Shown: positions 7,336-54,694 of the stretch, piece by piece
Layout of the letters: every line of letters begins with the position of its first letter
How positions within the stretch are numbered: position 1 is the first letter of the stretch
Origin: Clostridia bacterium
GTDB taxonomy: Bacteria; Bacillota; Clostridia; TANB77; CAG-508
DNA: 64,000 bases
Reading direction: 5' to 3'
Assembly (NCBI GenBank): GCA_017430135.1
Contig: JAFRNM010000004.1
Location: forward strand, 69,499 to 133,498
Notes under the pieces: model-generated
What the model was told of the DNA's origin: nothing
Databases searched by the model: none
The model's input: only the letters and a program-made list of their open reading frames with translations
Position numbers and translations under genes: made by a program

Positions 7336-7408
7336 CGACTTTTTGGGACACCCTGACTTTTGGGGATGACTTTTTAAGAGTGTCCCAAAAAGTCATCCCC
7401 AAAAGTCG
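7336..7408. repeat. Post-genic palindromic element (family member A), related to the TTTTTGGGACACTCTTAAAA family, with interleaved inverted repeats.
   Basis: CGACTTTTTGGGACACCC / TGACTTTTGGGGATGAC / TTTTTAAGAGTGTCCCAAAAAGTC / ATCCCCAAAAGTCG. Segment 1 pairs with segment 3 and segment 2 with segment 4. It lies immediately 3' of the giant CDS stop. Confidence 0.6.
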
Positions 7409-14037: not shown

Positions 14038-14043
14038 CGATAC

Positions 14044-14170
14044 TTTTTGGGACACTCTTAAAATTCCAGACTTTTTGGGACACTCTTAAAAGTCAAGGTT
14101 TGTTTAACCGAACCTTGACTTTTAAGAGTGTCCCAAAAAGTCTGGAATTTTAAGAGTGTCCCCAAAAGTT
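14044..14170. repeat. About 127 bp near-perfect palindrome carrying four copies of the 20-mer TTTTTGGGACACTCTTAAAA, two per arm (family member B).
   Basis: TTTTTGGGACACTCTTAAAA-TTCCAGAC-TTTTTGGGACACTCTTAAAA-GTCAAGGTT-tgtttaaccg-AACCTTGAC-TTTTAAGAGTGTCCCAAAAA-GTCTGGAA-TTTTAAGAGTGTCCCCAAAA. Confidence 0.8.
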
Positions 14171-21536: not shown

Positions 21537-21612
21537 GCGGGAATAGCTCAGTTGATAGAGCGCTGCCTTGCCAAGGCAGAGGTCGCGGGTTTGAGCCCCG
21601 TTTCCCGCTCCA
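21537..21612 (+). tRNA. tRNA-Gly (anticodon GCC).
   Basis: Acceptor stem GCGGGAA/TTCCCGC. Anticodon stem-loop CTGCC-ttGCCaa-GGCAG. T-arm GGTTTGAGCCCC. Ends CCA. Confidence 0.85.
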
Positions 21613-21915: not shown

Positions 21916-21989
21916 GGCGACATAGCCAAGTGGTAAGGCACGAGTCTGCAAAACTCTGATCCCCGGTTCAAATCCGGGTGTCGCCTCCA
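21916..21989 (+). tRNA. tRNA-Cys (anticodon GCA).
   Basis: Acceptor GGCGACA/TGTCGCC. Anticodon loop ctGCAaa. T-arm GGTTCAAATCCGG. Ends CCA. Confidence 0.85.
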
Positions 21990-23069: not shown

Positions 23070-26057
23070 ATGAATAAAGAAATGGTTGAGATACTTGAAA
23101 TTAGAGAAAATTTAAAAGATTTAAAGAAAACAACAGAAGCAGAAATTGAGAAAATCTCTAAAAAGTTAAAAGATAATAAAGCAGAAAACAGAAAACTTAT
23201 ACAATCTAAATTTGAAGAAATTATGGAATCTTATAGCTATAGTATTAACAACAATCCTAATTTAGAAAAATTTTTGAACGAAGACGAAATATATAAATTG
23301 ATCGATAGCAAAATTAAAGAAAACAGCAAAGAAACTGAGATAGATGAATTAACAGGATTAGTAGAAGAAATTGCTGATAAAGTAGTTGATGAAAATAAAA
23401 AATTAAAAGATAGAATAAAAAATTTAGAAGAATCTGATAAATTGACAGAAACTCAAAATACTTTGGAAGATAATATTGCAACATTAGAAGGAAAATTTCA
23501 AGGAAATAAACTTGAAACAACTGAGCAAATTCAAAGTATAAAGGAACAAATTGATTTACTTAAAGAAAAGGTTCTAAACGAAGAAGATATAGAAAATTTA
23601 ATAGAGCAAAAAACTGATACAACTATTGATAATAAAGAAATAAAAGCTTTAAAAGAAAGTGCTGAAGAAATACAATTTTTAAAAGAAAGAGTTGAAGTGA
23701 TACAAGCTCTAAAAGAAAGAATAGAAGAAATAAGAGACACACAAAACAAGCAAGAGGAAAAGCTTGGACAAGTTGAAGGCTTACAAATATATCAAAATGA
23801 AAAGCAAAAAGAGATTGAAGAAACAAATTCTAAAATAAAAGACATTGAAAAGCAATTAGAAAAATTGGAAAAAAATTATAAACAAGATTCTGACCAAGTT
23901 AATGAACTAAATGAACAAAATCTTGCTTATGGTGAAAAAATAGATACTTTAATTGCATTGGTTCAAGAACAAGAAAAACAGCTTGACAAATACGAAGAAG
24001 AAATTAACAGATTAGAAGAAAATACTGAAAAACATGAAGAAAAGCTACAAACAATTGGGGTTGGAACTGATGAGTTAAAAGAACAAATAAAGAAAGAATA
24101 TGATAAGAAAATTATTAATTTTGAAGATAGGTTAAATCTTGCAGAAAAATATCAAAATGATCATGAAGAAAAATTAGAAAAAACAAGTGAGGAATTGAAA
24201 GAGGTACAAGGCTTTGCAGAAATACTTCAAGGAAAGATAAATGATAAAGTAGTCGAATTTGAAGAAAAACTAACTGAAAATTCAGAAGATTTAAAAGAAA
24301 AAATAAATGAAAAAGATGCAACTATTGAAGAAATAAATAAAAATGTTGAGGGATTAGAGCAAAAGCTAAATGAAAAGATAGAAGAACTAGATGAAAAACA
24401 AGAAAGCTTTGAAAATAATGTTGAGAAAAACATTACAAAAATGAACGAAAAACATCAAAATTATGCTGTAAGTCTAAATTTCTTAAACAAAAATATTGAA
24501 GAGCATAAAGAAGAAACACAAAATTCAATTGAAGGTTTAAATGATAAAACAGGAGAGATTGAACAACAAATTGAAAAAATTCAAAATATATTAGAAAACT
24601 ATAATTTAGAGAAGCTTCATGAAAAAGTAGATGAGATAGAAGAAAATACTACTCAAATACAAGAAACAACGATTGCAACTGAAGAAAAAACAAATATTGC
24701 AATAAAAGAAATTGAAGAGAAAATTCAAGAATTACAAGAAAATGTAGAAGTTCAAGAACAAATAAATAATAAAATTACTCTATTAAAAGAACAAATTAAA
24801 AAATTGCAAGATAATTCTAAAATTGAAGAACAATTGAATGAAAAAACTGAATCTTTAGAAGAAAAAATTAATGTTAAAACAGAAGAATTTGAAGTAAGAA
24901 TCGAAGAATTAAATGAAATAAATAGTGAAAAGTTTGTTGAATTTAAGACTTTAAATGAGGAAAAAATGGAAGAATTGGAAAATTCTTTTACTGAAAAGCT
25001 TATAAAATTGGATAATTCTTATAACGAAAAAATAGAAGAAGTCAAAAATTTATATAACGATAAATTTGAAGAAATTGAGATTTCAAACAATGAAAAAGTT
25101 GAAAAAATAGAAGAATCTTATAATGAACAAATCGAAAAAATAGAAGATTTATACAATGGTAAGATAGAGAAAATAGAAGAAGCTTATGAAGGTTATAATG
25201 AAAAGATAGAAGAAGTTAACGCGAAAACAGAAAAAATCGATGATATTACTAAAAAACAAGAAGAGACAGCTAGAAAGGTTAAAAATCTAGCAATTGCAAT
25301 GGAAGAAAGATTGGAAGTTGCAGAACAAGGAATAGAAAATTCAATTAAACAGGCTATTGAAGAATTAGGCGTACAAGCACAATATGAAGAACTAAATGGG
25401 CAAGTAGAAGAAAGAATTTCCACATTAAATGAAGAAATTGTGGAAAAAGTCAACCAAGAAATTGAAAATGCAAATTCTAAAATGCAAGCAGAAAATGAAC
25501 TTCTAGTAGACAATAAAATCCATTCTATGCAAACAAAGGTAAATAAAGTATTTACAAAGCAATTAGATGAACTTCAAGTACAAAACGAAATGAGAATGCA
25601 AGAGCAAATAGAAAATGTAAAAAAACAAGCAAATGAAGTTTTAAATAAGGAACTTGCTAAGATAAAAGTTGAAAGTAAAAAACTTATAAATGAGAGCATA
25701 GCAAGAATCCAAATTGAAAACGAAGAAAAGCTTTCTAAACAGATTAAGTCTATGCAGGTACAAACAAGCGGAATTGTAGATAAAAAATTAAAACTAATGC
25801 AAGCAGATTATGATAATAAATTACAAAAATTAGAAAAAATGATTACTGCTTTAACAGAAGGTGCTACAGATTCCACAACAGCTAGAAGAAAAACTACAAG
25901 AAGTGGAATAACAACTCAAGTATTTTCTTATGAACCAGTAGATAATTATGATAATAATTTAATTGGCTCAATAAAAGAAACTAAAGTAAAACAAGCAGCA
26001 AAAAATATTGAACCAATGGATTATGAAGATTCTGGAATTATAAATTTCTTTGAATAA
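23070..26057 (+). CDS. Very long (995 aa) Glu/Lys-rich coiled-coil protein of unknown function.
   Basis: RBS AAAAGGAATGTTGAAAAT before the ATG. Almost entirely heptad-like E/K/I/L repeats (EEKIEE..., KIEEV...). No TM segment and no signal peptide. C-terminal globular tail. Confidence 0.75.
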   Translation: MNKEMVEILEIRENLKDLKKTTEAEIEKISKKLKDNKAENRKLIQSKFEEIMESYSYSINNNPNLEKFLNEDEIYKLIDSKIKENSKETEIDELTGLVEEIADKVVDENKKLKDRIKNLEESDKLTETQNTLEDNIATLEGKFQGNKLETTEQIQSIKEQIDLLKEKVLNEEDIENLIEQKTDTTIDNKEIKALKESAEEIQFLKERVEVIQALKERIEEIRDTQNKQEEKLGQVEGLQIYQNEKQKEIEETNSKIKDIEKQLEKLEKNYKQDSDQVNELNEQNLAYGEKIDTLIALVQEQEKQLDKYEEEINRLEENTEKHEEKLQTIGVGTDELKEQIKKEYDKKIINFEDRLNLAEKYQNDHEEKLEKTSEELKEVQGFAEILQGKINDKVVEFEEKLTENSEDLKEKINEKDATIEEINKNVEGLEQKLNEKIEELDEKQESFENNVEKNITKMNEKHQNYAVSLNFLNKNIEEHKEETQNSIEGLNDKTGEIEQQIEKIQNILENYNLEKLHEKVDEIEENTTQIQETTIATEEKTNIAIKEIEEKIQELQENVEVQEQINNKITLLKEQIKKLQDNSKIEEQLNEKTESLEEKINVKTEEFEVRIEELNEINSEKFVEFKTLNEEKMEELENSFTEKLIKLDNSYNEKIEEVKNLYNDKFEEIEISNNEKVEKIEESYNEQIEKIEDLYNGKIEKIEEAYEGYNEKIEEVNAKTEKIDDITKKQEETARKVKNLAIAMEERLEVAEQGIENSIKQAIEELGVQAQYEELNGQVEERISTLNEEIVEKVNQEIENANSKMQAENELLVDNKIHSMQTKVNKVFTKQLDELQVQNEMRMQEQIENVKKQANEVLNKELAKIKVESKKLINESIARIQIENEEKLSKQIKSMQVQTSGIVDKKLKLMQADYDNKLQKLEKMITALTEGATDSTTARRKTTRSGITTQVFSYEPVDNYDNNLIGSIKETKVKQAAKNIEPMDYEDSGIINFFE

Positions 26058-28451: not shown

Positions 28452-28500
28452 TTTTTGGGACACTCTTAAAATTCAAGACTTTTTGGGACACTCTTAAAAA
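28452..28500. repeat. Two direct copies of TTTTTGGGACACTCTTAAAA (family member C, half element).
   Basis: CTTTTTGGGACACTCTTAAAATTCAAGACTTTTTGGGACACTCTTAAAAAG, immediately 3' of tex. Confidence 0.75.
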
Positions 28501-30090: not shown

Positions 30091-30176
30091 TTGGGACACC
30101 CTTGAATTTGGGGACACTCTTAAAAATCAAGGGTTTTCAAAAACCTTGATTTTTAAGAGTGTCCCCAAATTCAAGT
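30091..30176. repeat. Palindromic member D of the GGGACACTCTTAAAA family.
   Basis: TTGGGACACCCTTGAA-TTTGGGGACACTCTTAAAAATCAAGG-gttttcaaaaa-CCTTGATTTTTAAGAGTGTCCCCAAA-TTCAAG. Confidence 0.75.
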
Positions 30177-43660: not shown

Positions 43661-44461
43661 ATGATACAAAATAATTTTATGCCAGAGGGTTGGGACAACG
43701 TGGTTTCAACATTAGATGGAAACAATATAAATGAAGTAATAAATAATAAAACGACTTTACAAGGTATTGTAACAGATTGTGATAATGATTTTAATTTGCA
43801 CATTGATTTAGGAAATTATCAAGGGATAATGCCTAGAAGCGAAGTGGAGGGAATAAACCTTCAAAGAAATGGATTGCCAAAAACTAATCTTTGTACTGGA
43901 AAGGTAAATAAATTCGTTCAATTTAAAGTAAAAGATGTAGGAAACAATGGAATTGCAATTTTATCTAGGAAAGATGTTCAAAGTGAAGCTTTAAACTGGG
44001 TAAAAAAAGATTTAAGTGTTGGAGATATTGTAACAGGTATAGTAAAAAGAGTTGAAAGCTATGGAGTTTTTATTGAAATTGGCGGAGGAGTTGTTGGACT
44101 AGCTCATATAGAAGATTTGTCTGTTGCAAGAATAAAGTCAGCATTTGAAAGAGTAAGCATTGGGCAAAAACTTGAAGTTATGGTTAAATCTATTGACAGA
44201 GAAAGTGGAAAACTTATTTTATCTTACAAGGAACTTTTGGGAACTTGGGAAGAGAATGCTGATAAATTTGATGTGGGGCAAAGGACTAAAGGAATTGTAA
44301 GAGAAACTGAAAAACATAAAAATGGTATTTTCATTGAACTTTTGCCAAATCTTGTTGGAATGGCTGAATATGTAGATGGGCTAGAATATGGGCAAGAAGT
44401 AAATGTTTATATAAAACGAATCGATTACGAAAGAAGAAAGGTGAAATTGCTTGTGGTTTAA
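43661..44461 (+). CDS. RNA-binding protein with three S1-like domains.
   Basis: Canonical S1 motif GDIVTGIVKRVESYGVFIEIGGGVVGLAHIEDLS, plus two flanking degenerate S1 repeats. Confidence 0.7.
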   Translation: MIQNNFMPEGWDNVVSTLDGNNINEVINNKTTLQGIVTDCDNDFNLHIDLGNYQGIMPRSEVEGINLQRNGLPKTNLCTGKVNKFVQFKVKDVGNNGIAILSRKDVQSEALNWVKKDLSVGDIVTGIVKRVESYGVFIEIGGGVVGLAHIEDLSVARIKSAFERVSIGQKLEVMVKSIDRESGKLILSYKELLGTWEENADKFDVGQRTKGIVRETEKHKNGIFIELLPNLVGMAEYVDGLEYGQEVNVYIKRIDYERRKVKLLVV

Positions 44462-44524: not shown

Positions 44525-45466
44525 ATGATTAAAGACAATGAAATTAAAGCCCAAGTTTCACCATTTGCAATGAGAGAAGGAGAAATTAAAACTTTTGATG
44601 GAAAAGATGGATATGTATCTATGAACCAAATTGTTCATAAAATAAATATTGGTCATATTACAGATATTCATTTTGCAATTTTAGATTTAGTAAATGAATT
44701 TGAATTTATTACATCAAGACAAATTTATCAATTACTAGAACTAAAAGGAATTGACCCACAATCACAAGATAAGTTAAACAATAAATTAGATAGTTTAGTA
44801 AAATCAAAAATTTTAACAAGATATTACTTTACTTCTGATGAAGGTAAAGGTGTTTATAGAATTTATTGCTTAGAAAAAATGGGAAAATACTTATTAAATT
44901 CTAAAGAAATTGAATGTAAATGGCAACAATCAGATAATACAAAACCGGTTGCAATGATAAAGAAAAGACTTGCTGGAAATCAAATTTTAATTGCCTACAA
45001 AACAAAGGTAAAAGCATTTGAGAGTTTTAAAGTTAAGCCAGTGCTTCAAGCAAAGCAAATTGGAAAACAATTTAAAGCAACAGCTGGTGGTGTTAAACTT
45101 TCTAAAGGCGGAAAATCAATTGATTTTATTTTTGAAGCAGTAAGAAGGGAAGAAGAATGGAAAGAAAAATTAGTAGATAAAATGAAATTATATAAAGATT
45201 TCTATGAAAACTATGTAATTGGGGATTCAGGATATAGCACAATGCCTCAATTGATAATAGTTGCAGAAGATGATAAGCACATGGCAGAATGTTTTAAAGT
45301 AATTGTAACATCTGGAACAGAGATTTCTAAAATTTCATTATTATTTACAACAGATTTACGCCAAAATGAAGTAGAGTTATCAAAGTCTTTGGTTCAATTT
45401 AAATTGGATGAACAAACAAACAAATATAAAGTTGAAAATGTAAGTTTAAAACTTTTAGAAGGCTAA
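44525..45466 (+). CDS. Winged-HTH protein resembling the replication-relaxation (Replic_Relax) family found in plasmids and integrative elements.
   Basis: HFAILDLVNEFEFITSRQIYQLLELKGI...KLDSLVKSKILTRYYF....GVYRIYCLEKMGKYLL matches the Replic_Relax HTH-wing pattern. RBS AAAGGAAG before the ATG. Confidence 0.4.
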   Translation: MIKDNEIKAQVSPFAMREGEIKTFDGKDGYVSMNQIVHKINIGHITDIHFAILDLVNEFEFITSRQIYQLLELKGIDPQSQDKLNNKLDSLVKSKILTRYYFTSDEGKGVYRIYCLEKMGKYLLNSKEIECKWQQSDNTKPVAMIKKRLAGNQILIAYKTKVKAFESFKVKPVLQAKQIGKQFKATAGGVKLSKGGKSIDFIFEAVRREEEWKEKLVDKMKLYKDFYENYVIGDSGYSTMPQLIIVAEDDKHMAECFKVIVTSGTEISKISLLFTTDLRQNEVELSKSLVQFKLDEQTNKYKVENVSLKLLEG

Positions 45467-45480
45467 TGGAGACACTAATT

Positions 45481-45548
45481 GAACAATTTGGGGACACTTC
45501 TAAAAATGTACAAGCTTGTACATTTTTAGAAGTGTCCTCAAATTGTTC
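45481..45548. repeat. 68 bp near-perfect palindrome, family member E of the GGGACACT family (variant core GGGACACTTCTAAAAA).
   Basis: GAACAATTTGGGGACACTTCTAAAAATGTACAAG|CTTGTACATTTTTAGAAGTGTCCTCAAATTGTTC. It lies between the wHTH gene and the AAA ATPase gene. Confidence 0.8.
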
Positions 45549-45582
45549 GGAAGTGTTCTTAATAAAAAAAGAGGGGGCAAAC

Positions 45583-47328
45583 ATGGACAAAAAAGATATT
45601 TTGAAGAGTGTTTATGAAGATTTTTTTGGAATTGAAAAATTAGCAAGAGAAAACGAGAGAATTGCTCAAGAATTAGAGGAAATGAATAGCAAATATAAGC
45701 CACTAAAAGAAGAGGAAATTCCAGAAATAATTGTTAATAAAGCTGAGGAAAATAAAGCAGATGATGGTGCTGAACCTCAAGAAGAATTTGACAAAGATAA
45801 ATACATGAAGGATACCTTTGAAGATATTGATAGTTTGTATATTGACGAAGCGTCTAAAGATTTATTGAAGAGAATTATTGAATACATGAGAAAATATAAC
45901 GAAAAAATTGAAAAACAATACATTTCTTTCAATTTAAAAATTTATTCAAATAATAAAGAGACAATATCAAAAATAGTAAAAATTCTTTTAGATTCTGGAG
46001 ACATATTTAAATATTTAAAAGATGGGGAAGCAGCATATTATTCAATGTATGATATTGAAGAAGTAAAGCAAATTGAGGGGGTATATGCAAGCAAAAATAG
46101 TGTTGTCGTTTTCCAAAATTTTGAAGGTTTTACCGAGAAAGAAGATAGCTTTAAAAATAAGTTTATAAGCAAATTTGACGAGACATTAAGCAAAAATGAA
46201 AATCAAGTTTTAACAATACTTTGTGCTAAAAATAAAGATTTAATAAATGAAGCTTTTTCTAAAAATGATGAGCTTTTACAAAAATATTTTGACTTTGAAA
46301 TTACAGGTATAGAGCCAGATGTGCAAGATGCTTATCAAGATATATTAAATAATTTAGAAGAAAAAATGGAAGTAACAGATGATTTCAAAGTTAAACTTCT
46401 AGACTATATCACAAAATACTATGCTGGTAATAGCTTGCCATACCCAGAATACAGGGATAAATTATGTGGAAAAATATTGTTTACAAAAGAGCTTCCAGAG
46501 GTAGAAAAAGAAAAAACTATGGAGGAAATATTTGAAGAATTAAATGGTTTAGTTGGTCTTGATAAAGTTAAAAATATGCTACATGATTTAGTTGATTTAA
46601 TAGAACTAAAAAATAAAACTAAAGATGATTTAAAAATTAAAAATATAAATCTTCACATGGTATTTTTAGGAAATCCAGGAACAGGTAAAACAACAGTTGC
46701 GAGAATAGTTGCAGAAATGCTTTACAATTTAAAATATATAAAACAAAATAAATTAATTGAAGCTTCAAGCAAAGACTTAGTTGCAGAATATGTAGGACAA
46801 ACAGCACCTAAAACAAATGCAGTAGTTCAAAAAGCATTAGGTGGAGTGCTATTTATAGATGAGGCATACAGCTTGGCGTCAGGACAAGGTCAAGGAAATT
46901 CATTTAATGAAGAAGCAATAGCAACATTAATTCAAGCAATGGAAAATTACAGAGATGACTTAGTTGTAATATTTGCAGGATACACAAGAGAAATGCAAGA
47001 TTTCTTAAATGCAAACTCAGGTATAGTTTCAAGAATTGGGTATACAGTTGAATTTGAAGACTATACACCAGATGAATTAATCCAAATATTTAATCAAATG
47101 ATGGAAAAATCAGGCTTTGTTGTAACAAAAGAAGCGCAAGATAAAGTTAGAGAAATAATAGATGAATATAAAGGAACTCAAAACTTTGGTAATGCACGTT
47201 TTGTAAGAAATATCTATGAAAAATCAATAGTAAAACATGCATCAAATACTAAGGGTAAAAAAGGCAAAAAAGTGCTTAAAACTATTTCAAAAGATGATAT
47301 TAGTACAGAAAATTTATTGAAAATGTAA
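45583..47328 (+). CDS. SpoVK/CbbX-family AAA+ ATPase with a long (~350 aa) N-terminal extension of unknown function.
   Basis: True start is the ATG at 45583 after AAAGAGGGGGCAAAC; the ORF-track start at 45466 runs through the palindrome. C-terminal motifs LVGLDKVKNMLHDLVDLIELKN, Walker A MVFLGNPGTGKTTVARIVAEML and Walker B VLFIDEAYSL are typical of SpoVK. Confidence 0.8.
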   Translation: MDKKDILKSVYEDFFGIEKLARENERIAQELEEMNSKYKPLKEEEIPEIIVNKAEENKADDGAEPQEEFDKDKYMKDTFEDIDSLYIDEASKDLLKRIIEYMRKYNEKIEKQYISFNLKIYSNNKETISKIVKILLDSGDIFKYLKDGEAAYYSMYDIEEVKQIEGVYASKNSVVVFQNFEGFTEKEDSFKNKFISKFDETLSKNENQVLTILCAKNKDLINEAFSKNDELLQKYFDFEITGIEPDVQDAYQDILNNLEEKMEVTDDFKVKLLDYITKYYAGNSLPYPEYRDKLCGKILFTKELPEVEKEKTMEEIFEELNGLVGLDKVKNMLHDLVDLIELKNKTKDDLKIKNINLHMVFLGNPGTGKTTVARIVAEMLYNLKYIKQNKLIEASSKDLVAEYVGQTAPKTNAVVQKALGGVLFIDEAYSLASGQGQGNSFNEEAIATLIQAMENYRDDLVVIFAGYTREMQDFLNANSGIVSRIGYTVEFEDYTPDELIQIFNQMMEKSGFVVTKEAQDKVREIIDEYKGTQNFGNARFVRNIYEKSIVKHASNTKGKKGKKVLKTISKDDISTENLLKM

Positions 47329-47329
47329 C

Positions 47330-47394
47330 TTTTTGGGACACTCCCCAAAAAACTGAAATAAAACCTGTCCTATAAGGCGACAGGTTTTATTTTT
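47330..47394 (+). terminator. Family member F (TTTTTGGGACACTCCCCAAAAAA) followed by an intrinsic terminator.
   Basis: CTTTTTGGGACACTCCCCAAAAAAC, then AAAACCTGTCC-tataagg-CGACAGGTTTTATTTTTG. Confidence 0.7.
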
Positions 47395-47510
47395 GTATAA
47401 AAAAGCGCTTTTGGGGGCTTTAAATATTTGATTTTATATGAAAAATATGGTATAATATTTACATAACACTGTTTTAATCATGGGATAATAATTTGCTATG
47501 ATGAAAACAA

Positions 47511-48665
47511 ATGTCTACAAAGGAGTGTGATATCACAAACAAAAAAGTAAAACCAAAAACCAGAAGATCAAAAACTATAAAGGAGGAATCAGCAGTGCTA
47601 CAACTGCAAGTAAAAGACATTAACATCTGTCGGATTAGTCAAATTCTTGTAAGGCATAATATCAAAGCAAGCATTTCTAATTCGCAAATCACATTGGATG
47701 GTGATATTTCCGATGAATTGCTCACCCAGATTTGTGGTGACTCTGAAATGGAGATAAAATCCATTCAGAACTTTGCTAGCGAAGAGGCGTCAGACTTACT
47801 GATGCCAGTCTTTGTTCAAAAACCTGAATTTGACCTATTGTATCCAAAGGTCAAGTTTGGAGAGTTGTATTTATGTGATTTTGGTGATCCCTATGAACAT
47901 GAGCAGGGATTCATCAGATATGCTATTGTTGTACAAAATGACTTCGGAAATGAAGTTTCTCCTATAACAATAGTTGTACCTTGTACGACTCAAACTAAGA
48001 GAGTTATCCCTTCTAGCTATTATACTACCTTTTCTTATGAGAATATGGTAGACTATGATGCACATAAAGTGGGAACGCGTGAAAATGCCATAAAAATCGA
48101 ACAAATTCGTGCGGTTGATAAAACCAGGCTGAGAAAGTATCTGGGAACGCTGAAAACTGAACTAATGAGCAAGATTATTGAAAAGATAAATGAAACAATA
48201 CGTCTTGACGAAGATTCTAACAATGAGGATTATAAAACAGTCTACATTTCCAGGAAGAAAGAACCTTTAAGGAAACGGAAAGACCTTAATATGGTTCAAA
48301 TTCAGCTATTATCTCTTGTAGATATAAAAAAGCTGATAGAAATTTCCGAAAGTAGCTTTGAGGATGAGATTAAAGTCGAAAAAATCCTAGAGCTGTTCGG
48401 ATTTAATCTCACTCAAAAGGGTGTAAAACTGCTAGCAAAAGCTATTCTTGCTTCTCCCAAAGATGACTATTTTAATCTTGAAACTTTATCTGGAATTGTT
48501 TCACAAGATGAAGGAATTAGTAGGGAGGAAATTAAAAGATTAATAGTTGCAAGAGTTAAAGAAACACTTGGCTTTAGCAAAGCTCCTACAATTGATTTCA
48601 TTAGACTCATTAACGCATTTTTAGCCAAACAGGAGGAAAATAAAGATGAAGAAATTGTTTTTTAA
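47511..48665 (+). CDS. Fusion protein with a central MazF/PemK (EndoA-like) endoribonuclease-toxin domain. An AbrB/MazE-like segment may lie upstream and an HTH-like C-terminal domain downstream.
   Basis: VKFGELYLCDFGDPYEHEQGFIRYAIVVQNDFGNEVSPITIVVPCTTQ...KIEQIRAVDKTRL aligns nearly position for position with B. subtilis EndoA [48 protein letters not shown]...LLEQIRTIDKQRL. A more likely start is the GTG at 47595 after AAAGGAGGAA. GC content and codon usage are clearly above local background. Confidence 0.65.
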   Translation: MSTKECDITNKKVKPKTRRSKTIKEESAVLQLQVKDINICRISQILVRHNIKASISNSQITLDGDISDELLTQICGDSEMEIKSIQNFASEEASDLLMPVFVQKPEFDLLYPKVKFGELYLCDFGDPYEHEQGFIRYAIVVQNDFGNEVSPITIVVPCTTQTKRVIPSSYYTTFSYENMVDYDAHKVGTRENAIKIEQIRAVDKTRLRKYLGTLKTELMSKIIEKINETIRLDEDSNNEDYKTVYISRKKEPLRKRKDLNMVQIQLLSLVDIKKLIEISESSFEDEIKVEKILELFGFNLTQKGVKLLAKAILASPKDDYFNLETLSGIVSQDEGISREEIKRLIVARVKETLGFSKAPTIDFIRLINAFLAKQEENKDEEIVF

Positions 48666-49461
48666 AGTTAGTCAAATAAAAGATGACTCGTTGCTTCCGC
48701 TGATCAAGGAAATCAACAAAATATCATGTAAGATTTGCATTAATCTTAACAAGGGCATGGTTGATGTAGAGAATGTTGAAGAAAACATGCTCGAAACAGT
48801 AATAGGGCTGGTAAATGATTATTTTTCCATTTCTAATGTTGATATTGACAACACCATTGAAGCTGCAACTGAAACAAATGATACTGAAAAGACGACGGCT
48901 TTAGAAGCAGAACTTTCAGAGGAAGATGTTGTGCGTAAAGTTGGAAACGAATATGTTGATAACAAAATAAATACACTTTGTAAGACTGTATATTGGGCTT
49001 TATCCACAGTTCATGCACCTGAGAAGGAATTGAGTGATTACCTTCAAACATGTATAAGCGAAATTTCTCTCAGATACTCAAACAAATCAGGCATAGAGTT
49101 TGAGGTCGGAGACATTGTTGATATTAATTTTGGTTCTGGTCTTCCAGGTGAGGTTTATAGAAACCATATCCATGCAATTGTAGTTAGCTTGGGGAATGAA
49201 GGGTTGGTGTACGTTGTACCCATAACCAAAAATAAAACAGATTTGAAATCTAAATCTTATATATGTTTTGAGGCTCCTGAGGATGCCATTTATTATAATG
49301 ATTATTTCACTGGAGGTGCTGCACTGGCTGACAAGACAAGGTGTATAAGAGTTGAAAGGTTGAATTCTGTTGTTGGTAAAACCAAGAAAGAATTCTTTGA
49401 AAAATTGGTTGATATTATACCAAATGCATTTGATTTTAAGAAAGAATGCATTGATTGGTAG
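48646..49461 (+). CDS. Second MazF/PemK-domain protein, with a C-terminal toxin fold and a ~150 aa N-terminal extension. It is translationally coupled to the preceding gene by a 20 nt overlap.
   Basis: VGDIVDINFGSGLPGEVYRNHIHAIVVSLGNEGLVYVVPITKNK...ADKTRCIRVERLNSVVGK fits the PemK/MazF pattern. GGAGGAAAATAAAG RBS lies inside the upstream gene. Confidence 0.65.
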   Translation: MKKLFFKVSQIKDDSLLPLIKEINKISCKICINLNKGMVDVENVEENMLETVIGLVNDYFSISNVDIDNTIEAATETNDTEKTTALEAELSEEDVVRKVGNEYVDNKINTLCKTVYWALSTVHAPEKELSDYLQTCISEISLRYSNKSGIEFEVGDIVDINFGSGLPGEVYRNHIHAIVVSLGNEGLVYVVPITKNKTDLKSKSYICFEAPEDAIYYNDYFTGGAALADKTRCIRVERLNSVVGKTKKEFFEKLVDIIPNAFDFKKECIDW

Positions 49462-49465
49462 ACAT

Positions 49466-49500
49466 TATCTGGGCAGGATTTATATCCTGCCCACTTTTAA
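49466..49500 (+). terminator. Intrinsic terminator ending the MazF-domain cassette.
   Basis: TCTGGGCAGGAT-ttatat-CCTGCCCA followed by CTTTT. Confidence 0.7.
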
Positions 49501-49673
49501 ATTCATAAATAAAAAATCATCTAATATATTTATATTAGATAATTTTTTTGCTTAAAAACTCTATACAAAAATAAAATTTAGATATATAATGTAAAAAAAT
49601 ACGGACTAAGGAATGTCTTCCAAAATTTTGGAATTCAATATATTTAGTATAAAAATTGAAGGGATGATTATAC

Positions 49674-51146
49674 ATGAAATTAGAAAAAATTCTACAAGGC
49701 TTAACAGAACTAAAACTTAGAGGAGACTTAAATACAGAAATTTCAGGAATTGAAAGTAATTCTAAAAATGTAAAACCAGGATTTTTATTTATAGCAATTA
49801 AGGGCTTTTCAGTAGATGGCCATAAATATATAGAAAGTGCAATAGAAAATGGAGCAACAGCTGTAATGGTACAAGAAGGTTGCGATTTAAAAGCACTTAA
49901 GATTCCAAATGATATTACAATAGTAATGGCAAAAGATACAAGATATGCATTAGCAATATGTTCAGCCAATTTCTATGGTAATCCATCAAGAAAATTTAAA
50001 TTGATAGGTGTTACAGGAACAAAAGGAAAAACAACAACAACTTTTATGATTAAAGAAATTTTAGAAAAAGCGGGAAAAAATGTTGGCTTAGTTGGAACAA
50101 TTGCTACATACATAAATGGAAAAATGCTTAAAGAAAGTGATAGAACAACACCAGAGAGTTTAGAACTTCAACAAATTTTTAGTCAAATGGTAGAAGAAAA
50201 AGTAGAATATGTTGTAATGGAAGTTTCATCACAAAGCTTAAAGTTACATAGAGTTGCTGGATGTGATTTTGATGTTGTATTGTTTACAAACTTCTCAGAA
50301 GATCATATAAGTGAAAAAGAACATCCAGATATGCAAGACTACTTTAACTCTAAAATGATGTTATTCAAAATGTGTAAAACAGGCTTTGTAAATGCAGATG
50401 ATTTATATGGTGCAAAAATTCCAAAATTATTCCCAGAAAGTGATATTACAACTTATGGAATTGATAATTCTGCAAAAATAATGGCAAGAGACATAACAAT
50501 TACAAATTCTTTTGTTGATTTCAAAGCAAAATTGGGAGAAAGAAATGACAGAGTAAAAGTTGGAATACCTGGAAGATTTAGTGTGTATAATTCATTAGCT
50601 GCAATTTGTGTTGCAAAAAAATTTGGAATTGCCCCAGAGATAATAAAGGAGGCTCTTTTAGATGTAAGAGTTCCAGGACGTTCAGAGCTTGTTAAAAATA
50701 AATTAGATTTACCAATAATGATAGATTATGCTCATTCGCCAGAAAGCTTAGAAAACATACTTCAAGCTGTAAAAGGCTATACAAGAGGAAATGTTATAAG
50801 TGTATTTGGCTGTGGGGGAGATAGAGATAGTGGTAAAAGACCAATAATGGGAGAAATATCTGGTAAAATAGCAGATTACACAATCATCACATCAGATAAC
50901 CCAAGAACAGAAAATCCAGAAGAAATAGTAAAACAAATAGAAGCTGGAATTAAGAAAACAAACGGAAAATACAAAGTTATAGTTGATAGAACAGAGGCAA
51001 TAAAAGAAGCTATCAAAATGGCTCACAAAAACGACTTAATTGTACTAGCTGGAAAAGGTCACGAGCCATATCAAGAAATAAATGGTGTTAAATATCCATT
51101 TGATGAAAGAATAATAGTAAATGAAATAATCGATGGATTAGACTAA
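49674..51146 (+). CDS. murE: UDP-N-acetylmuramoyl-L-alanyl-D-glutamate--2,6-diaminopimelate ligase.
   Basis: Mur ligase motifs IGVTGTKGKTTTT and DYAHSPESL. Conserved C-terminal domain. Confidence 0.9.
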   Translation: MKLEKILQGLTELKLRGDLNTEISGIESNSKNVKPGFLFIAIKGFSVDGHKYIESAIENGATAVMVQEGCDLKALKIPNDITIVMAKDTRYALAICSANFYGNPSRKFKLIGVTGTKGKTTTTFMIKEILEKAGKNVGLVGTIATYINGKMLKESDRTTPESLELQQIFSQMVEEKVEYVVMEVSSQSLKLHRVAGCDFDVVLFTNFSEDHISEKEHPDMQDYFNSKMMLFKMCKTGFVNADDLYGAKIPKLFPESDITTYGIDNSAKIMARDITITNSFVDFKAKLGERNDRVKVGIPGRFSVYNSLAAICVAKKFGIAPEIIKEALLDVRVPGRSELVKNKLDLPIMIDYAHSPESLENILQAVKGYTRGNVISVFGCGGDRDSGKRPIMGEISGKIADYTIITSDNPRTENPEEIVKQIEAGIKKTNGKYKVIVDRTEAIKEAIKMAHKNDLIVLAGKGHEPYQEINGVKYPFDERIIVNEIIDGLD

Positions 51147-51167
51147 GGAAAAAAGAAATAGAAAGGT

Positions 51168-52157
51168 TTGAGAAAATTGAATTTTAATATAATAATACTT
51201 TTAATATCTTTTGCAGTATCTGTAATGGCTGGAGTAATAACAATACCACAACTTAAAAGATTAAAGGTTGGGCAAATAGAAAGAGATGATGGACCACAAT
51301 CCCATTTAAAAAAACAAGGTACTCCTACAATGGGAGGAATAATAATAATTGCAACAATGATTATAGTTATAACTGGAATGTCCATATATTTAAATAGTGT
51401 GAATCAAGCTGAGACAGCAAACAAACTACTTCCAATGCTTATTTTAACAATAGGCTTTGGAATAGTTGGCTTTATAGATGATTTTAAAAAATTAGTTTTG
51501 AAAAATACAAAAGGTTTAAAACCAAGTTATAAGATGTTTGGATTACTTCTTATATCTGTTGCGTTTGTGGTTTATTTGGTATATGGATTACAAATTGGAA
51601 CAGATACATATATACCTATAGTAAAAACTTCTGTTACATTGCCAATATATTTTTACATTCCTTTTGCAATTTTAGTAATATTAGGTACTACTAATGCAAT
51701 AAACTTAACTGATGGAATAGATGGACTTTCATCAAGTGTAAGTTCTTTAATAATAACAACATTAACAATTATAGGAATACAAAAGTTTATACCAGAAATA
51801 GGATTTTATGGTAGCGCAGTAATAGGTGCAACATTAGGATTTTTAATGTTTAATTTGCACCCAGCAAAAGTATTTATGGGAGATACTGGTTCACTACTTT
51901 TAGGTGGTGTAATATCTGGAATGGCTTTATATTTAAAAATGCCATTACTACTTGTTATAATTGCTTTAATTCCAGTATTAGAAACAATTTCTGTAATGAT
52001 GCAAGTTGCATATTTCAAAAAAACAGGAAAAAGAATATTCAAAATGGCTCCATTACATCACCATTTTGAACTATCTGGCTGGAGCGAGAACAAAGTTGTT
52101 ATCATCTTTTGCCTTATAACTTTAGCTTTATGCGTTTTAGGTTTACAAATAGTATAA
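51168..52157 (+). CDS. mraY: Phospho-N-acetylmuramoyl-pentapeptide transferase.
   Basis: Ten TM helices. TPTMGG and DGIDGL motifs. TTG start. Confidence 0.9.
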   Translation: MRKLNFNIIILLISFAVSVMAGVITIPQLKRLKVGQIERDDGPQSHLKKQGTPTMGGIIIIATMIIVITGMSIYLNSVNQAETANKLLPMLILTIGFGIVGFIDDFKKLVLKNTKGLKPSYKMFGLLLISVAFVVYLVYGLQIGTDTYIPIVKTSVTLPIYFYIPFAILVILGTTNAINLTDGIDGLSSSVSSLIITTLTIIGIQKFIPEIGFYGSAVIGATLGFLMFNLHPAKVFMGDTGSLLLGGVISGMALYLKMPLLLVIIALIPVLETISVMMQVAYFKKTGKRIFKMAPLHHHFELSGWSENKVVIIFCLITLALCVLGLQIV

Positions 52158-52166
52158 TAATAACTA

Positions 52167-52372
52167 GAATATAATAATTTCGAAGCCCGCGAAAGCGCCA
52201 GCCACTGCATACTGCCGCTGTAACAGGCATAGCCTTAACAGCGGACAGCAAAACGAACGAAGTGAGTGCGACCTGGAGCAACTTACAGACTAGTTGTGCG
52301 AAAAATTGCATCGCAATTTTTCTGTACAACATAGGAAGTTGCGACGACAAGGGCAAGAAATAATTATATTTC
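52167..52372 (+). ncRNA. GC-rich structured repeat element, copy 3, carrying an extra 35-nt hairpin insertion.
   Basis: CCGCGAAAGCGCCA-[GCCGCTGTaacaggcatagccttaACAGCGG]-AAACGAACGAAGTGAGTGCGACCTGGAGCAACTT...AAGTTGCGACGACAAGG. Flanking imperfect inverted repeat GAATATAATAATTTCG / GAAATAATTATATTTC. Confidence 0.55.
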
Positions 52373-52407
52373 AGTTATTTAAAAAAATTTGGAAAGGAAA
52401 AGAAAAT

Positions 52408-53538
52408 ATGGCAAAAAAGAAAAAAAGTTTTTCGAGCTTTTTGAATAATCCAGTAGATTTTCCGCTATTGGTAGTAATACTGCTATTGCTAACAATTGGG
52501 TTAATAATGGTATTGTCTGCAAGTTCTCCGTCGGCATTGTCGGAAAGTGGAAATAGCTACAAATACTTTACAAAACAATTATTATTTGCTGTAATAGGAA
52601 TTGTAGCAATGCTTGCAATTTCTAAAATAGATTATAGATTTTATCAAAAATTTTACAAAAATGCATGGTGGATTTCGCTAATATTATTAGCATTGGTATT
52701 AATTGCAGGTAAAAATGTAAATGGTTCTAAAAGATGGATATATTTAACAGAAACATTATCATTCCAACCATCAGAATTAGTTAAGATATTGATGATTATA
52801 TTTTATGCTGGTATTTTAACGGTTAATAGAGATGAGTTAGGAAACTACAAATTGGGATTTTTAAAGCATATATGCTTATTAGCTCCAATAATAGGACTTC
52901 TAATGTTACAACCACATTTTAGTGCTTCAATAGTTATAGTTGGTATATGTAGTGTTATGATGATAGTTGCAGGGTGCAAATTCAAACATTTTGCTTTAAC
53001 CGCCGGTTCGGTGGGAGTACCCGCAATTGTAGGATTAATTATGTTTTCTCCATATAGATTACAAAGAGTTGTAACTTTCTTAGACCCATGGAAAGATAAA
53101 GCAGGAGACGGATGGCAAGTTATACAAAGTTTATATGCCATTGGCTCTGGAGGATTATTTGGAGCGGGATTAGGAGAGAGTAAACAAAAATATTTATATA
53201 TACCAGAACCACATAATGACTTTATTTTCTCAATTTTAGGCGAAGAGCTAGGATTTATAGGATGCGCGATTGTTATAATATTATTTGCGATTTTCATTTG
53301 GAGAGGTGTTTTGGTTGCAATGAGAGCACCAGATATGTTTGGAAGTCTTGTTGCAGTTGGAATTACAGCATTGGTTGCAATTCAAGTTATCATAAATATA
53401 GCAGTTGTTACATCTTCAATGCCAGTTACTGGTATGCCACTTCCGTTTTTTAGTTATGGAGGAACAGCCCTCTTCATGATTTTGTGTGAGATGGGAATAT
53501 TGCTCAATATTTCACGAGCAAGTAATAAAACAGCATAG
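52408..53538 (+). CDS. ftsW: Peptidoglycan glycosyltransferase FtsW/RodA (SEDS family).
   Basis: SEDS multi-TM topology with conserved DFIFSILGEELGF and PLPFFSYGGT motifs. True ATG at 52408 after GGAAAGGAAAAGAAAAT; the ORF-track start at 52294 runs into the repeat. Confidence 0.85.
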   Translation: MAKKKKSFSSFLNNPVDFPLLVVILLLLTIGLIMVLSASSPSALSESGNSYKYFTKQLLFAVIGIVAMLAISKIDYRFYQKFYKNAWWISLILLALVLIAGKNVNGSKRWIYLTETLSFQPSELVKILMIIFYAGILTVNRDELGNYKLGFLKHICLLAPIIGLLMLQPHFSASIVIVGICSVMMIVAGCKFKHFALTAGSVGVPAIVGLIMFSPYRLQRVVTFLDPWKDKAGDGWQVIQSLYAIGSGGLFGAGLGESKQKYLYIPEPHNDFIFSILGEELGFIGCAIVIILFAIFIWRGVLVAMRAPDMFGSLVAVGITALVAIQVIINIAVVTSSMPVTGMPLPFFSYGGTALFMILCEMGILLNISRASNKTA

Positions 53539-53560
53539 ATTATTAAAAGAGGTGAATGAA

Positions 53561-54694
53561 ATGAGAGTTATTATTGCTGCTGCAGGTACTGCTGGACATA
53601 TAAATCCAGGGCTTGCGATAGCTAATAAAATAAAAAAAGAACAACCTAATTCTGAAATTATTTTTATAGGAACTTCAAGAGGTTTAGAAAATGATTTAGT
53701 GCCAAGGGCAGGCTATGAATTAAAAACAATAGAAGCGTATGGATTAAGCAAAAAGATTTCTTTTGATAATCTAAAAAAATTGGTTAAAACTTTTATAGGA
53801 ATGGGGCAAGCAAAGAAAATTGTAAAACAATTTAAACCAGACATTGTAATTGGAACTGGTGGATACATTTGTGGAGCAGTTATTACAGCAGCGAGCAAAC
53901 AAGGAATTCCAACTCTTTTGCATGAGAGTAATGCTTTTCCAGGTAAAGCTGTTAAGATGTTAGCCAAAAGAACAGATACAATTTTAGTTTCTTTCCAAGA
54001 TGCCAAAGACAGAATTCCGGATGCTAAAAATATAGTTTGCACAGGAACTCCTGTAAAAATTAAAAAGCAAAATTATGGAATAAATGAGAAAAATGAAATT
54101 ATAAAAGAAAATGGTCTAAATGCTTCAAAACCAATTGTTTTAGTTTATGGAGGAAGCCAAGGGGCTCAAAAAATTAATGAAGCTTTAACAGAAATTATAA
54201 AGAAAAAGCTAAATAAAAATTACCAAGTAATCTGGGCAACTGGGCCAAAACAATACGACATAATCAAAGAAAATTTGGGTGAAATTGATATAGAAAACAT
54301 TGAAAATATGAAAGTTGTTCCGTATATTTATGATATGGAAAAAATTATGAATATTGCTGATTTAATTGTAGCAAGAAGCGGAGCAATGACAATTACAGAA
54401 ATATCAAATTTAGGAAAAGCATCAATTTTAGTGCCATTGCCAAATGTAAGTAATAACCATCAAATGTATAATGCGAAGGTACTAGAAAAAATAAATGCAG
54501 CTGAAATTATAGAAAATGACAACATGAATGGAGAACTCTTAAATAAGACAATAAATGAAATTGTGTCAGATAAAGAAAAAATAAAGCTTATGGGAGCAAG
54601 TGCATATAGCATTTCTATAAAAGACACACAGGATAAGATTTTTAAAGAGATTTTAGCATTGTTAAATAGAAATATATTGAAACAAAAAAAATAG
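53561..54694 (+). CDS. murG: UDP-N-acetylglucosamine--N-acetylmuramyl-(pentapeptide) pyrophosphoryl-undecaprenol N-acetylglucosamine transferase.
   Basis: MRVIIAAAGTAGHINPGLAIA N-terminus. GGSQGA motif. ATG at 53561 after AAGAGGTGAATGAA. Confidence 0.9.
   Translation: MRVIIAAAGTAGHINPGLAIANKIKKEQPNSEIIFIGTSRGLENDLVPRAGYELKTIEAYGLSKKISFDNLKKLVKTFIGMGQAKKIVKQFKPDIVIGTGGYICGAVITAASKQGIPTLLHESNAFPGKAVKMLAKRTDTILVSFQDAKDRIPDAKNIVCTGTPVKIKKQNYGINEKNEIIKENGLNASKPIVLVYGGSQGAQKINEALTEIIKKKLNKNYQVIWATGPKQYDIIKENLGEIDIENIENMKVVPYIYDMEKIMNIADLIVARSGAMTITEISNLGKASILVPLPNVSNNHQMYNAKVLEKINAAEIIENDNMNGELLNKTINEIVSDKEKIKLMGASAYSISIKDTQDKIFKEILALLNRNILKQKK

Follow-up and report, generated by a model that had tools for sequence, protein, structure and literature searches.

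Do four unusual genes lodged between two housekeeping blocks of a bacterial chromosome form a single accessory island, or did they come together by separate events? The question is raised by a 64,000-nt stretch of a Clostridia bacterium genome (contig JAFRNM010000004.1 of assembly GCA_017430135.1; hereafter, the window), in which four open reading frames (ORFs) on one strand, named G1 to G4, lie between the gene of an S1-domain RNA-binding protein (43661-44461) and murE (49674-51146). An initial annotation made from the sequence alone had recognized these four same-strand ORFs, and had interpreted them as a 5-kb accessory insertion bounded by palindromes and perhaps dedicated to phage defense. 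We compared the window with contig stretches from related genomes (loci numbered L003 to L106) and conclude with high confidence that three units with separate inheritance, rather than a single island, make up the region: G1 travels with the S1 gene as a core gene, G2 is a resident of the block that contains murE, and the G3-G4 pair is an autonomous cassette encoding a MazF-type protein and a partner. The full explanation, which adds to this composite origin a mechanism for the cassette, we hold to be probable.

G1 is a vertically inherited chromosomal core gene of an uncultured, low-GC lineage of gut Clostridia, and it is co-inherited with the S1 gene. This is established by the graded series of its homologues, the number of species that carry it, its pairing with the S1 gene, a conservation exceeding that of its neighbors, and a typical composition. 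The homologues (n = 5227) form a smooth series of decreasing identity and all come from assemblies of uncultured gut "Clostridia bacterium" or "Clostridium sp. CAG"; with each species represented by one genome, G1 was detected in at least 526 species-level genomes. We mapped the window proteins onto 80 G1 loci, 78 of which had enough upstream sequence and 73 of which could be scored for the first downstream ORF. In 76 of the 78 species loci, G1 was immediately preceded by the S1 gene, the usual gene order being SSB-p552-rluD-rluB-S1-G1, and the median identity to the window was higher for G1 (76.6%) than for rluD (74.0%), rluB (72.7%) and S1 (62.7%). The GC content at third codon positions (GC3) averages 0.179 over 37 window genes (standard deviation 0.043), and that of G1 is unremarkable (z = -0.8). 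The genes found 3' of G1 are variable, with 18 unrelated first downstream ORFs among the 73 loci; pflA and pflB, on the opposite strand, are the commonest, and G2 follows G1 only in L012 and L013 among the mapped loci. Across loci L012 to L091, S1-G1 is an almost invariant pair and the site immediately 3' of G1 is a synteny breakpoint.

A profile search bore out the Replic_Relax-like pattern first noticed in G1: residues 53-230 cover positions 1-179 of the 191 positions of PF13814 at 33.1 bits, above the cut-off of 25.3. This family has been assigned a PD-(D/E)XK domain combined with a helix-turn-helix (HTH) (PMC3424549); no solved structure of a G1 relative was found. The accompanying suggestion that G1 is of the plasmid or integrative-element kind does not survive the comparison with its carrier species, as no such context was met at the G1 loci, which show chromosomal core synteny with no mobile-element genes nearby. 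G1 shares with the Replic_Relax proteins of plasmids and integrative elements a score above the Pfam gathering threshold and the HTH plus PD-(D/E)XK make-up of the family, but it differs from them in being chromosomal, vertically transmitted and fixed beside an S1-domain gene in hundreds of species.

G2 belongs to the other flank. It is conserved in the lineage and, ancestrally, stands last in a VWA/XpaC-like/TelA cluster, with murE as the next gene. Full-length homologues range in identity from 100% down to 61%, and at 87%, 72% and 62% identity the homologue closes a cluster that encodes an SBP and VWA protein, a PF10112 (XpaC-like) protein, a 378-aa protein, TelA and G2 itself. In two of the three cluster loci (L092 and L094), murE-mraY-ftsW-murG comes directly after the G2 homologue. 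No TelA, XpaC or VWA gene was found elsewhere in the window, so that the window copy of G2 has been separated from its usual partners. Its GC3 is that of a typical window gene (z = -0.2). G2 starts at ATG 45583, behind the ribosome-binding site AGAGGGGG, and its homologues measure 577-583 aa. A start at 45466, which would place the 68-bp palindrome of the G1/G2 joint inside the gene, was ruled out by these homologue lengths and by the strong ribosome-binding site before 45583. The palindrome is therefore intergenic, and L009 and L013 carry a different intergenic sequence in its place.

The initial description of G2 as a SpoVK/CbbX-type AAA+ ATPase with an unmatched N-terminal extension was accurate: it has AAA and AAA_lid_6 domains, and profile searches gave no family match for the N-terminal ~345 aa. 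The C-terminal 260 aa, including AAA_lid_6, align end to end with TIGR02881, TIGR02880 and TIGR03922 (E-values 1e-77 to 1e-64), at scores below the equivalog cut-offs for SpoVK (TIGR02881, 259.4 versus 422.95), CbbX (TIGR02880, 227.2 versus 459.25) and EccA (TIGR03922, 218.3 versus 466.65). Judged by these scores, G2 is related to SpoVK, CbbX and EccA at the subfamily level only. It differs from them in its extra N-terminal region as well as in its conserved neighbors, which are the TelA, XpaC-like and VWA genes rather than sporulation, RuBisCO or ESX genes. The PHROGs family phrog_4339, of unknown function, covers most of G2 including part of the N-terminal region (E = 7e-38), which means that phage-encoded relatives of this AAA+ architecture exist.

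The adjacency of G1 and G2 results from a rearrangement of the chromosome. The S1-G1 and murE blocks are not adjacent in most relatives. In a sister species, both are found on one 59-kb contig, with the G2-murE block ~26 kb upstream of SSB...S1-G1, an order reversed relative to the window, and with no G3-G4 pair separating G2 from murE. The window order is common to L012 and L009 (L009 being from the same species as L013), in which G1 is 94-96% and G2 87-90% identical. The sharing of this order, together with the reversed order of the sister species, shows that the G2-murE block was joined behind G1 by a block translocation. The event would date from the ancestor that the window species shares with its two closest relatives, and would have put G2-murE right after G1. 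What had been taken for a core synteny of rluD-rluB-S1...murE interrupted by four genes is a junction of two blocks, with G1 in the S1 block and G2 in the murE block.

The palindromes proposed as island borders are dispersed repeats resembling repetitive extragenic palindromic (REP) sequences or miniature inverted-repeat transposable elements (MITEs). The 68-bp palindrome at 45481-45548 is real, with two arms of 34 nt and a predicted fold of -49.5 kcal/mol (z = -14), but it contains one mismatch and is not perfect as first reported. The repeat unit and terminator described after G2 were also recovered (47329-47392, combined fold -29.5 kcal/mol, z = -7.3). The palindrome and the repeat unit belong to a family with the core GGGACAC, which occurs 13 times in the window versus 1.18 expected, a count that none of 100 shuffles reached. 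The copies are confined to six intergenic regions (7345-7386, 14049-14162, 28457-28491, 30093-30165, 45481-45548 and 47329-47353). The repeat units, of ~22-28 nt and roughly ACTTTTTGGGACACTCTTAAAA, occur in direct and inverted orientation as single units, tandem pairs or long palindromes, the longest site being a 130-bp palindrome at 14039-14170. Relatives have other versions of the motif at the same junctions: L012 carries the identical 68-bp palindrome, and L009 and L013 a different 45-bp hairpin with a GGGACAC core at the G1/G2 joint. The presence of a copy exactly at this joint fits either a role in the rearrangement or a later insertion. The repeats had no match in Rfam. They share with REP palindromes, bacterial interspersed mosaic elements (BIMEs) and MITEs short palindromic units, a conserved core, direct and inverted copies and an intergenic position after gene ends, but they form a sequence family unrelated to the described REPs, and no gene for a REP-associated tyrosine transposase (RAYT)-like protein or other transposase was seen in the window. 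Sites with the GGGACAC core also occur in more distant species (L046, 1220-1300; L051, 5000-5080), and in L074 (15880-16210) the core lies inside the ~85-bp terminal inverted repeats of a ~330-bp element. The short window palindromes may be minimal derivatives of such ~330-bp MITE-like elements.

G3-G4 is the only stretch that behaves as an insertion, and it is an autonomous cassette. Its own promoter and terminator, the highest GC3 of the window, its absence in L092 and L094 and its presence at unrelated sites mark it as a separate unit. It spans ~2.2 kb (~47400-49545) between the G2 terminator and the murE promoter. Both genes have a GC3 of 0.30 (z ~ +2.8), the highest among the 37 window genes. 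In L092 and L094, no G3-G4 pair separates G2 from murE, and homology of the window with the cassette-free G2-murE spacer of L092 resumes at ~49545. The pair is found at unrelated sites in L010, L011, L099-L103 and L106: before rpoB, beside restriction-modification and HNH genes, between two HTH_3 genes and a recombinase fragment, with ABC transporter and mnmA genes, and with MFS transporter and aroA genes. Outside the three closest species, none of these pairs adjoins a G1 or G2 homologue, and the four genes never occur together as the traveling unit that had been envisaged. At 37-52% identity, G3 is always followed by a G4 homologue, overlapping or directly abutting, and the cassette promoter (10 of 12 positions matching) is conserved in all G3 loci, including these distant ones. 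The accessory insertion upstream of murE is thus upheld for the ~2.2 kb of G3-G4, not for 5 kb, since G1 and G2 are resident. Conservation in place and a host-like composition, which would speak against an island, apply to G1 and G2, the block as a whole being confined to the three closest species, and the composition of G3-G4 departs from that of the host.

The family is rare. G3-like proteins make up 275 clusters in a set of 5.8 billion proteins, and a profile of the G3 C-terminal domain matched 92 of 1.84 billion representatives, nearly all of them 320-450 aa long with the domain at the C-terminus; PemK was present in 9 of 10 sampled members. In the window species, all ten contigs carrying an identical G2 have the cassette. 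Compared with L097, another contig of the same species, the window is 99-100% identical in the flanks but only 87-94% identical in nucleotides within G4 (48700-49100, the linker and helical part), a divergence that could reflect a recombination tract or fast evolution. Between species, G4 is 68% identical versus 90-94% for the flanks. L098 was considered as a within-species recombinant with a foreign G3-G4 allele and ruled out, being 100% identical to L012. A phage- or plasmid-like origin of G3 was rejected on a search of phage records and viral contigs (the plasmid collection lay outside this search), in which no sequence had the G3 architecture and the matches were to the MazF domain only, at 28-36% identity over about one-third of the protein. 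Scans with Pfam- and NCBI-type family profiles found no integrase or transposase among the block proteins, in agreement with the initial annotation, and the 44525-49500 block has no flanking direct repeats, only short repeats at chance level. We also considered a 15-nt perfect inverted repeat around the cassette (47385-47399 and 49562-49576) and judged it a chance occurrence in AT-rich DNA: by our own estimate, about one such pair arises per 5.5 kb, and its right arm belongs to the murE promoter, which is present also in the cassette-free L092.

G3 is a 356-aa protein that starts at GTG 47595 after the ribosome-binding site AAGGAGG, its homologues beginning with MLQLQ. An earlier start at ATG 47511, or a leader peptide, was rejected: the upstream frame has in-frame stops in L012, L010, L011 and L103 and a frameshift in L009, and the small ORFs there are unconserved. 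The full-length model (pLDDT 71.8) comprises three domains. The central one matches PemK/MazF (PF02452) at 75.1 bits, versus a cut-off of 23.1, and is closest to EndoA/YdcE of B. subtilis (PDB 4mdx, E = 4.5e-23; 1ne8, E ~5e-23; Foldseek template modeling (TM) score 0.78 to 4me7 and 1ne8). In the alignment, an Arg present in at least 90% of family sequences (motif fkRyaiv) and the Thr of a CTT motif fall opposite GGVRPVLV and AITAQ of 4mdx. These positions correspond to the catalytic pair of B. subtilis MazF, R25 and T48, and by this alignment G3 retains the catalytic Arg and Thr.

The C-terminal domain of G3 points to a different protein family. Modeled alone, it reached a pLDDT of 85.5, and its five best PDB matches were all chains of the Spo0A effector domain (1lq1 and 1fc3), with Foldseek probabilities of 0.97-1.0, TM scores of 0.56-0.70 and E-values of 0.18-0.45. 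Homology to Spo0A at the sequence level was not retained, as hhalign against an approximate Spo0A sequence gave a non-significant E-value of 0.24. The model suggests a domain that is Spo0A-like at the level of fold and at most a candidate member of the family. The likeness to the Spo0A effector domain (PF08769; PDB 1LQ1, 1FC3) consists of the helical model and the top five fold matches; the window protein differs in lacking a significant sequence match and a receiver domain, in its fusion to a predicted RNase, and in its restriction to ~90 clusters.

G4 overlaps G3 by 20 nt and encodes 271 aa, in which a conserved N-terminus (~70 aa) is followed by a helical segment and then by a half that is MazF-like and degenerate. 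It scores 19.5 bits against PF02452, below the cut-off of 23.1, and its relatives score 13.3-13.8 bits. The view of G3 and G4 as two GC-atypical MazF proteins is correct for the composition of both and for the MazF domain of G3, that of G4 being weak. An hhalign comparison of G4 with the G3 MazF domain extended over 115 columns in the correct register (E = 8.8e-4, probability 23%); the residue opposite the catalytic Arg of G3 is Ile for the window protein and Val for distant G4s. G4 is probably a degenerate MazF-like protein that has no catalytic Arg and has lost activity. The N-terminal domains of G3 and G4 look alike by eye, but their homology found no support (hhalign E = 0.12, wrong register). 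Distant G4s are longer (370-470 aa) and carry at the C-terminus an extra helical domain (~100 aa), which the window clade does not have (L010, 11191-12585; L011, 11115-12431; L099, L101, L103 and L106). In L104 (8013-9248) and L105, this extra domain is fused to, or comes right after, a G3-like protein with MazF and Spo0A-like domains and no N-terminal domain. It shows weak similarity to Pfam Tad8 (E = 0.0014-0.07).

Between the cassette promoter and G3 lies a leader of ~135 nt, whose nucleotide conservation is kept between loci with proteins only 37-52% identical (11 loci, drawn from L009-L012 and L099-L106). The promoter and leader together (47428-47594) are more conserved at the nucleotide level than the proteins encoded downstream. 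The leader contains a hairpin (47461-47514) of 17 pairs, in which 90.6% of cells are paired (slid controls, 25-54%), with compensatory changes at five pairs and with G-U intermediates. Rfam has no family that matches it. Besides the ribosome-binding site AAGGAGG, the leader has the motifs UACAU (47460-47464) and TGTCTAC (47512-47518). UACAU is the cleavage motif of B. subtilis MazF, and TGTCTAC resembles the Spo0A box, TGTCGAA. The conserved hairpin may be a cis-regulatory element of the cassette.

From these features we infer a mechanism for the cassette. G3 would be an active, sequence-specific endoribonuclease of the MazF/EndoA type, and as such toxic to its host. Its Spo0A-type domain would bind DNA, most likely its own promoter and leader, and thereby provide the autoregulation that antitoxins usually carry out. 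G4, translationally coupled to G3 and apparently devoid of the catalytic Arg, would be the cognate neutralizing partner in place of a MazE antitoxin. That all three hold together, an active G3, a neutralizing G4 and autoregulation through G3 binding to its own operator, is a tentative proposal to which we give slightly less than an even chance. Still bolder, and in our estimate rather unlikely, is that G3-G4 represents the first MazF module in which operator binding lies on the toxin, a catalytically dead paralogue of the toxin fold neutralizes it through mixed oligomers, and a UACAU-containing leader takes part in the control circuit.

Known toxin-antitoxin modules offer partial precedents. 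Neither the window nor 10 related loci showed a small antitoxin ORF of the MazE, AbrB or ribbon-helix-helix (RHH) type beside G3, the upstream frame being non-coding. G3-G4 shares with MazEF and EndoA-EndoAI (YdcE-YdcD) an EndoA-type MazF core, the catalytic positions and a coupled two-gene operon with its own promoter. It differs in that the toxin gene comes first, no MazE, AbrB or RHH gene is present, the putative toxin, 356 aa long, has additional domains on both sides of the MazF core, its 271-aa partner is MazF-like and degenerate, and a structured leader of ~135 nt precedes the operon. Toxin-first type II modules exist in the gene orders higBA, mqsRA and hicAB, in which the downstream antitoxin carries the DNA-binding domain. 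By analogy, G3-G4 would resemble them in having the toxin gene upstream of the presumed neutralizer, with overlapping frames, but would differ in carrying the putative DNA-binding domain on the toxin and in having a partner that is itself similar to the toxin fold.

Several observations weigh against this reading of the cassette. The Spo0A-like call depends on a ranking of folds whose Foldseek E-values are non-significant. A transitive match to Spo0A_C (PF08769), through the divergent member P0439, reached 24.8 bits, 0.2 under the cut-off of 25, and the G3 domain itself had no match in Pfam at E <= 1. Its profile did not reach Spo0A in searches of PDB and the 1.84 billion representatives, and none of the 92 proteins matched was of Spo0A length. 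For G4, the MazF-like call is weak, with a sub-cut-off Pfam score, an hhalign probability of 23% and no sequence match in PDB. The covariation of the leader hairpin is suggestive and comes from few independent lineages. Finally, the cassette is fixed in the species, to judge by all contigs sampled; it has neither an integrase nor flanking direct repeats, and a link to a mobile element was seen only in L099. Being fixed and without a link to mobility, it could be a domesticated regulator instead of a selfish toxin-antitoxin module.

We weighed this last possibility together with other explanations. If G3-G4 is a domesticated regulatory pair, in which G3 acts as a sequence-specific RNase and as a transcription factor on 0A-like boxes and G4 as a modulator, sporulation genes or the envelope genes near murE would be possible targets. 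The fixation of the cassette at one site, both in the species (all contigs sampled) and in two of its sister species, favors this, as do the strong conservation of the promoter and leader across deep divergence, the Spo0A-like domain, and sporulation in the lineage, as indicated by SpoIVA in relatives. However, a core regulator would hardly be so rare (92 clusters among 1.84 billion representatives) or so patchy within the lineage, the composition is atypical, and G3 has kept the catalytic residues of a growth-arresting RNase; we therefore consider domestication unlikely, though worth keeping in mind. We give similar weight to the idea that the pair alone is an abortive-infection module in which infection releases the RNase activity of G3. 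Its patchy occurrence in related genomes, variable sites and atypical composition speak for this, G4 diverges faster than the flanks, and the L011 pair neighbors genes for an Eco57I/MmeI-type methyltransferase, a GHKL ATPase and HNH proteins. Most other contexts are nonetheless housekeeping (rpoB, mnmA, aroA, ABC and MFS transporters), PADLOC gave no match, and neither phage-borne relatives nor links to counter-defense were found, which leaves an abortive-infection role with roughly one chance in a handful.

Explanations that tie the cassette to its neighbors fare far worse. MazF domains do occur in abortive-infection contexts, and a long-fixed, palindrome-bounded anti-phage or abortive-infection island of all four genes would account for their adjacency on the same strand in three related species. 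G2 is also weakly similar to the defense ATPases IetA and TRIP13, and the family of G1 is nuclease-like (PMC3424549). Yet PADLOC called no system: it gave a partial AAA+ match for G2 (IetA at 44.8 bits, and TRIP13) with no IetS or CBASS partner, weak HTH matches for G1, and none for G3 or G4, so that the predicted defense system was not borne out. G1 and G2 have a host-like composition and each shows a wider, vertical distribution with different neighbors, G3-G4 occurs elsewhere without either, a terminator and a promoter split G2 from G3, and the palindromes are dispersed. Contradicted by synteny, a single island is very improbable. An RNase system regulated by the G2 ATPase and newly assembled by the rearrangement is just as hard to sustain. 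G2 does adjoin G3-G4 in three species, and AAA+ unfoldases such as Lon and ClpXP can activate toxins by removing antitoxins; but the two are separate transcription units, G2 keeps its ancestral place before murE with the cassette inserted behind it, and no G2 homologue was found at the other G3-G4 loci. We thus retain the composite region, with G3-G4 as a separately acquired, putative toxin-antitoxin-like cassette.

Features of the G1-murE region and of the loci compared with it. Positions refer to the window unless a locus is named.
Feature	Position	Strand	Basis
S1-domain RNA-binding protein gene; conserved partner upstream of G1	43661-44461	+	Pfam S1, 74.5 bits
G1, Replic_Relax family protein (HTH + PD-(D/E)XK-type domain by family)	44525-45466	+	PF13814, 33.1 bits
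68-bp near-perfect palindrome, GGGACAC repeat copy at the G1/G2 joint	45481-45548		Fold, -49.5 kcal/mol
G2, AAA+ ATPase of SpoVK/CbbX/EccA type with lineage-specific N-terminal region of ~345 aa	45583-47328	+	AAA and AAA_lid_6 domains
Single GGGACAC repeat unit, short hairpin, immediately 3' of the G2 stop codon	47329-47353	+	Repeat scan, fold
G2 intrinsic terminator: stem CCUGUC/GACAGG lengthened by A/U pairs, U run	47357-47392	+	Combined fold with repeat unit
G3-G4 cassette promoter: TTGATT, 17-nt spacer, TG-extended TATAAT	47428-47456	+	Best promoter match in the region
5' leader of G3, conserved and non-coding	47457-47594	+	Nucleotide conservation across 11 loci; in-frame stops in relatives
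G3, three-domain MazF protein	47595-48665	+	PemK, 75.1 bits; EndoA 4mdx, E = 4.5e-23
G3 N-terminal beta-alpha-beta-beta-alpha-beta domain (predicted), aa 1-59	47595-47771	+	Structure model
G3 EndoA-like MazF domain, aa 86-202	47850-48200	+	PemK profile, PDB, Foldseek
G3 Spo0A-like seven-helix C-terminal domain (predicted), aa 233-343	48291-48623	+	Structure model, Foldseek
G4, partner protein with degenerate MazF-like C-terminal half (49099-49446)	48646-49461	+	PemK, 19.5 bits, sub-cut-off
Cassette terminator	49470-49493	+	-18.6 kcal/mol, z = -6.3; conserved in L009 and L012
murE promoter-like site, right-hand limit of the insertion	49562-49590	+	Identical sequence before murE in cassette-free L092
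murE, ancestral downstream neighbor of G2	49674-51146	+	NF001126, 565 bits
Five-gene TelA-G2 cluster	L092 5409-11737; L093 4865-11752; L094 5008-11734

The surroundings of the region bear other marks of rearrangement and content that we record here. In the window, murE-mraY-ftsW-murG (49674-54694) is not preceded by mraZ-rsmH-ftsL, which in some relatives sit a few kb downstream of G1 (L003/L004, 16922-18933); the division and cell-wall cluster has been broken up and rearranged in this lineage. Upstream, the window holds very large ORFs at 152-7300, 14344-19209 and 23070-26057 (2382, 1621 and 995 aa), and Rfam identified two tRNA genes at 21537-21609 and 21916-21986.

Altogether, the locus is a cautionary case in which odd genes between housekeeping blocks mimicked a defense island, and synteny shows that two of them are core genes. 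G1 provides a new chromosomal core-gene context for Replic_Relax and suggests that a family linked until now to plasmids has a housekeeping role. The palindromes make up an undescribed dispersed repeat family of an ordinary kind, with one copy at a rearrangement joint. The cassette brings together a MazF domain, a Spo0A-like, putatively DNA-binding domain and a probable pseudo-MazF partner, with no MazE, a rare combination seen in ~90 clusters among 1.84 billion representatives; if confirmed, this architecture would widen the known range of MazF toxin control. Through the Spo0A-like domain, the module might read or perturb genes controlled by 0A boxes. If this is true, RNA cleavage by G3-G4 would be tied to the decision of gut spore-formers to sporulate.

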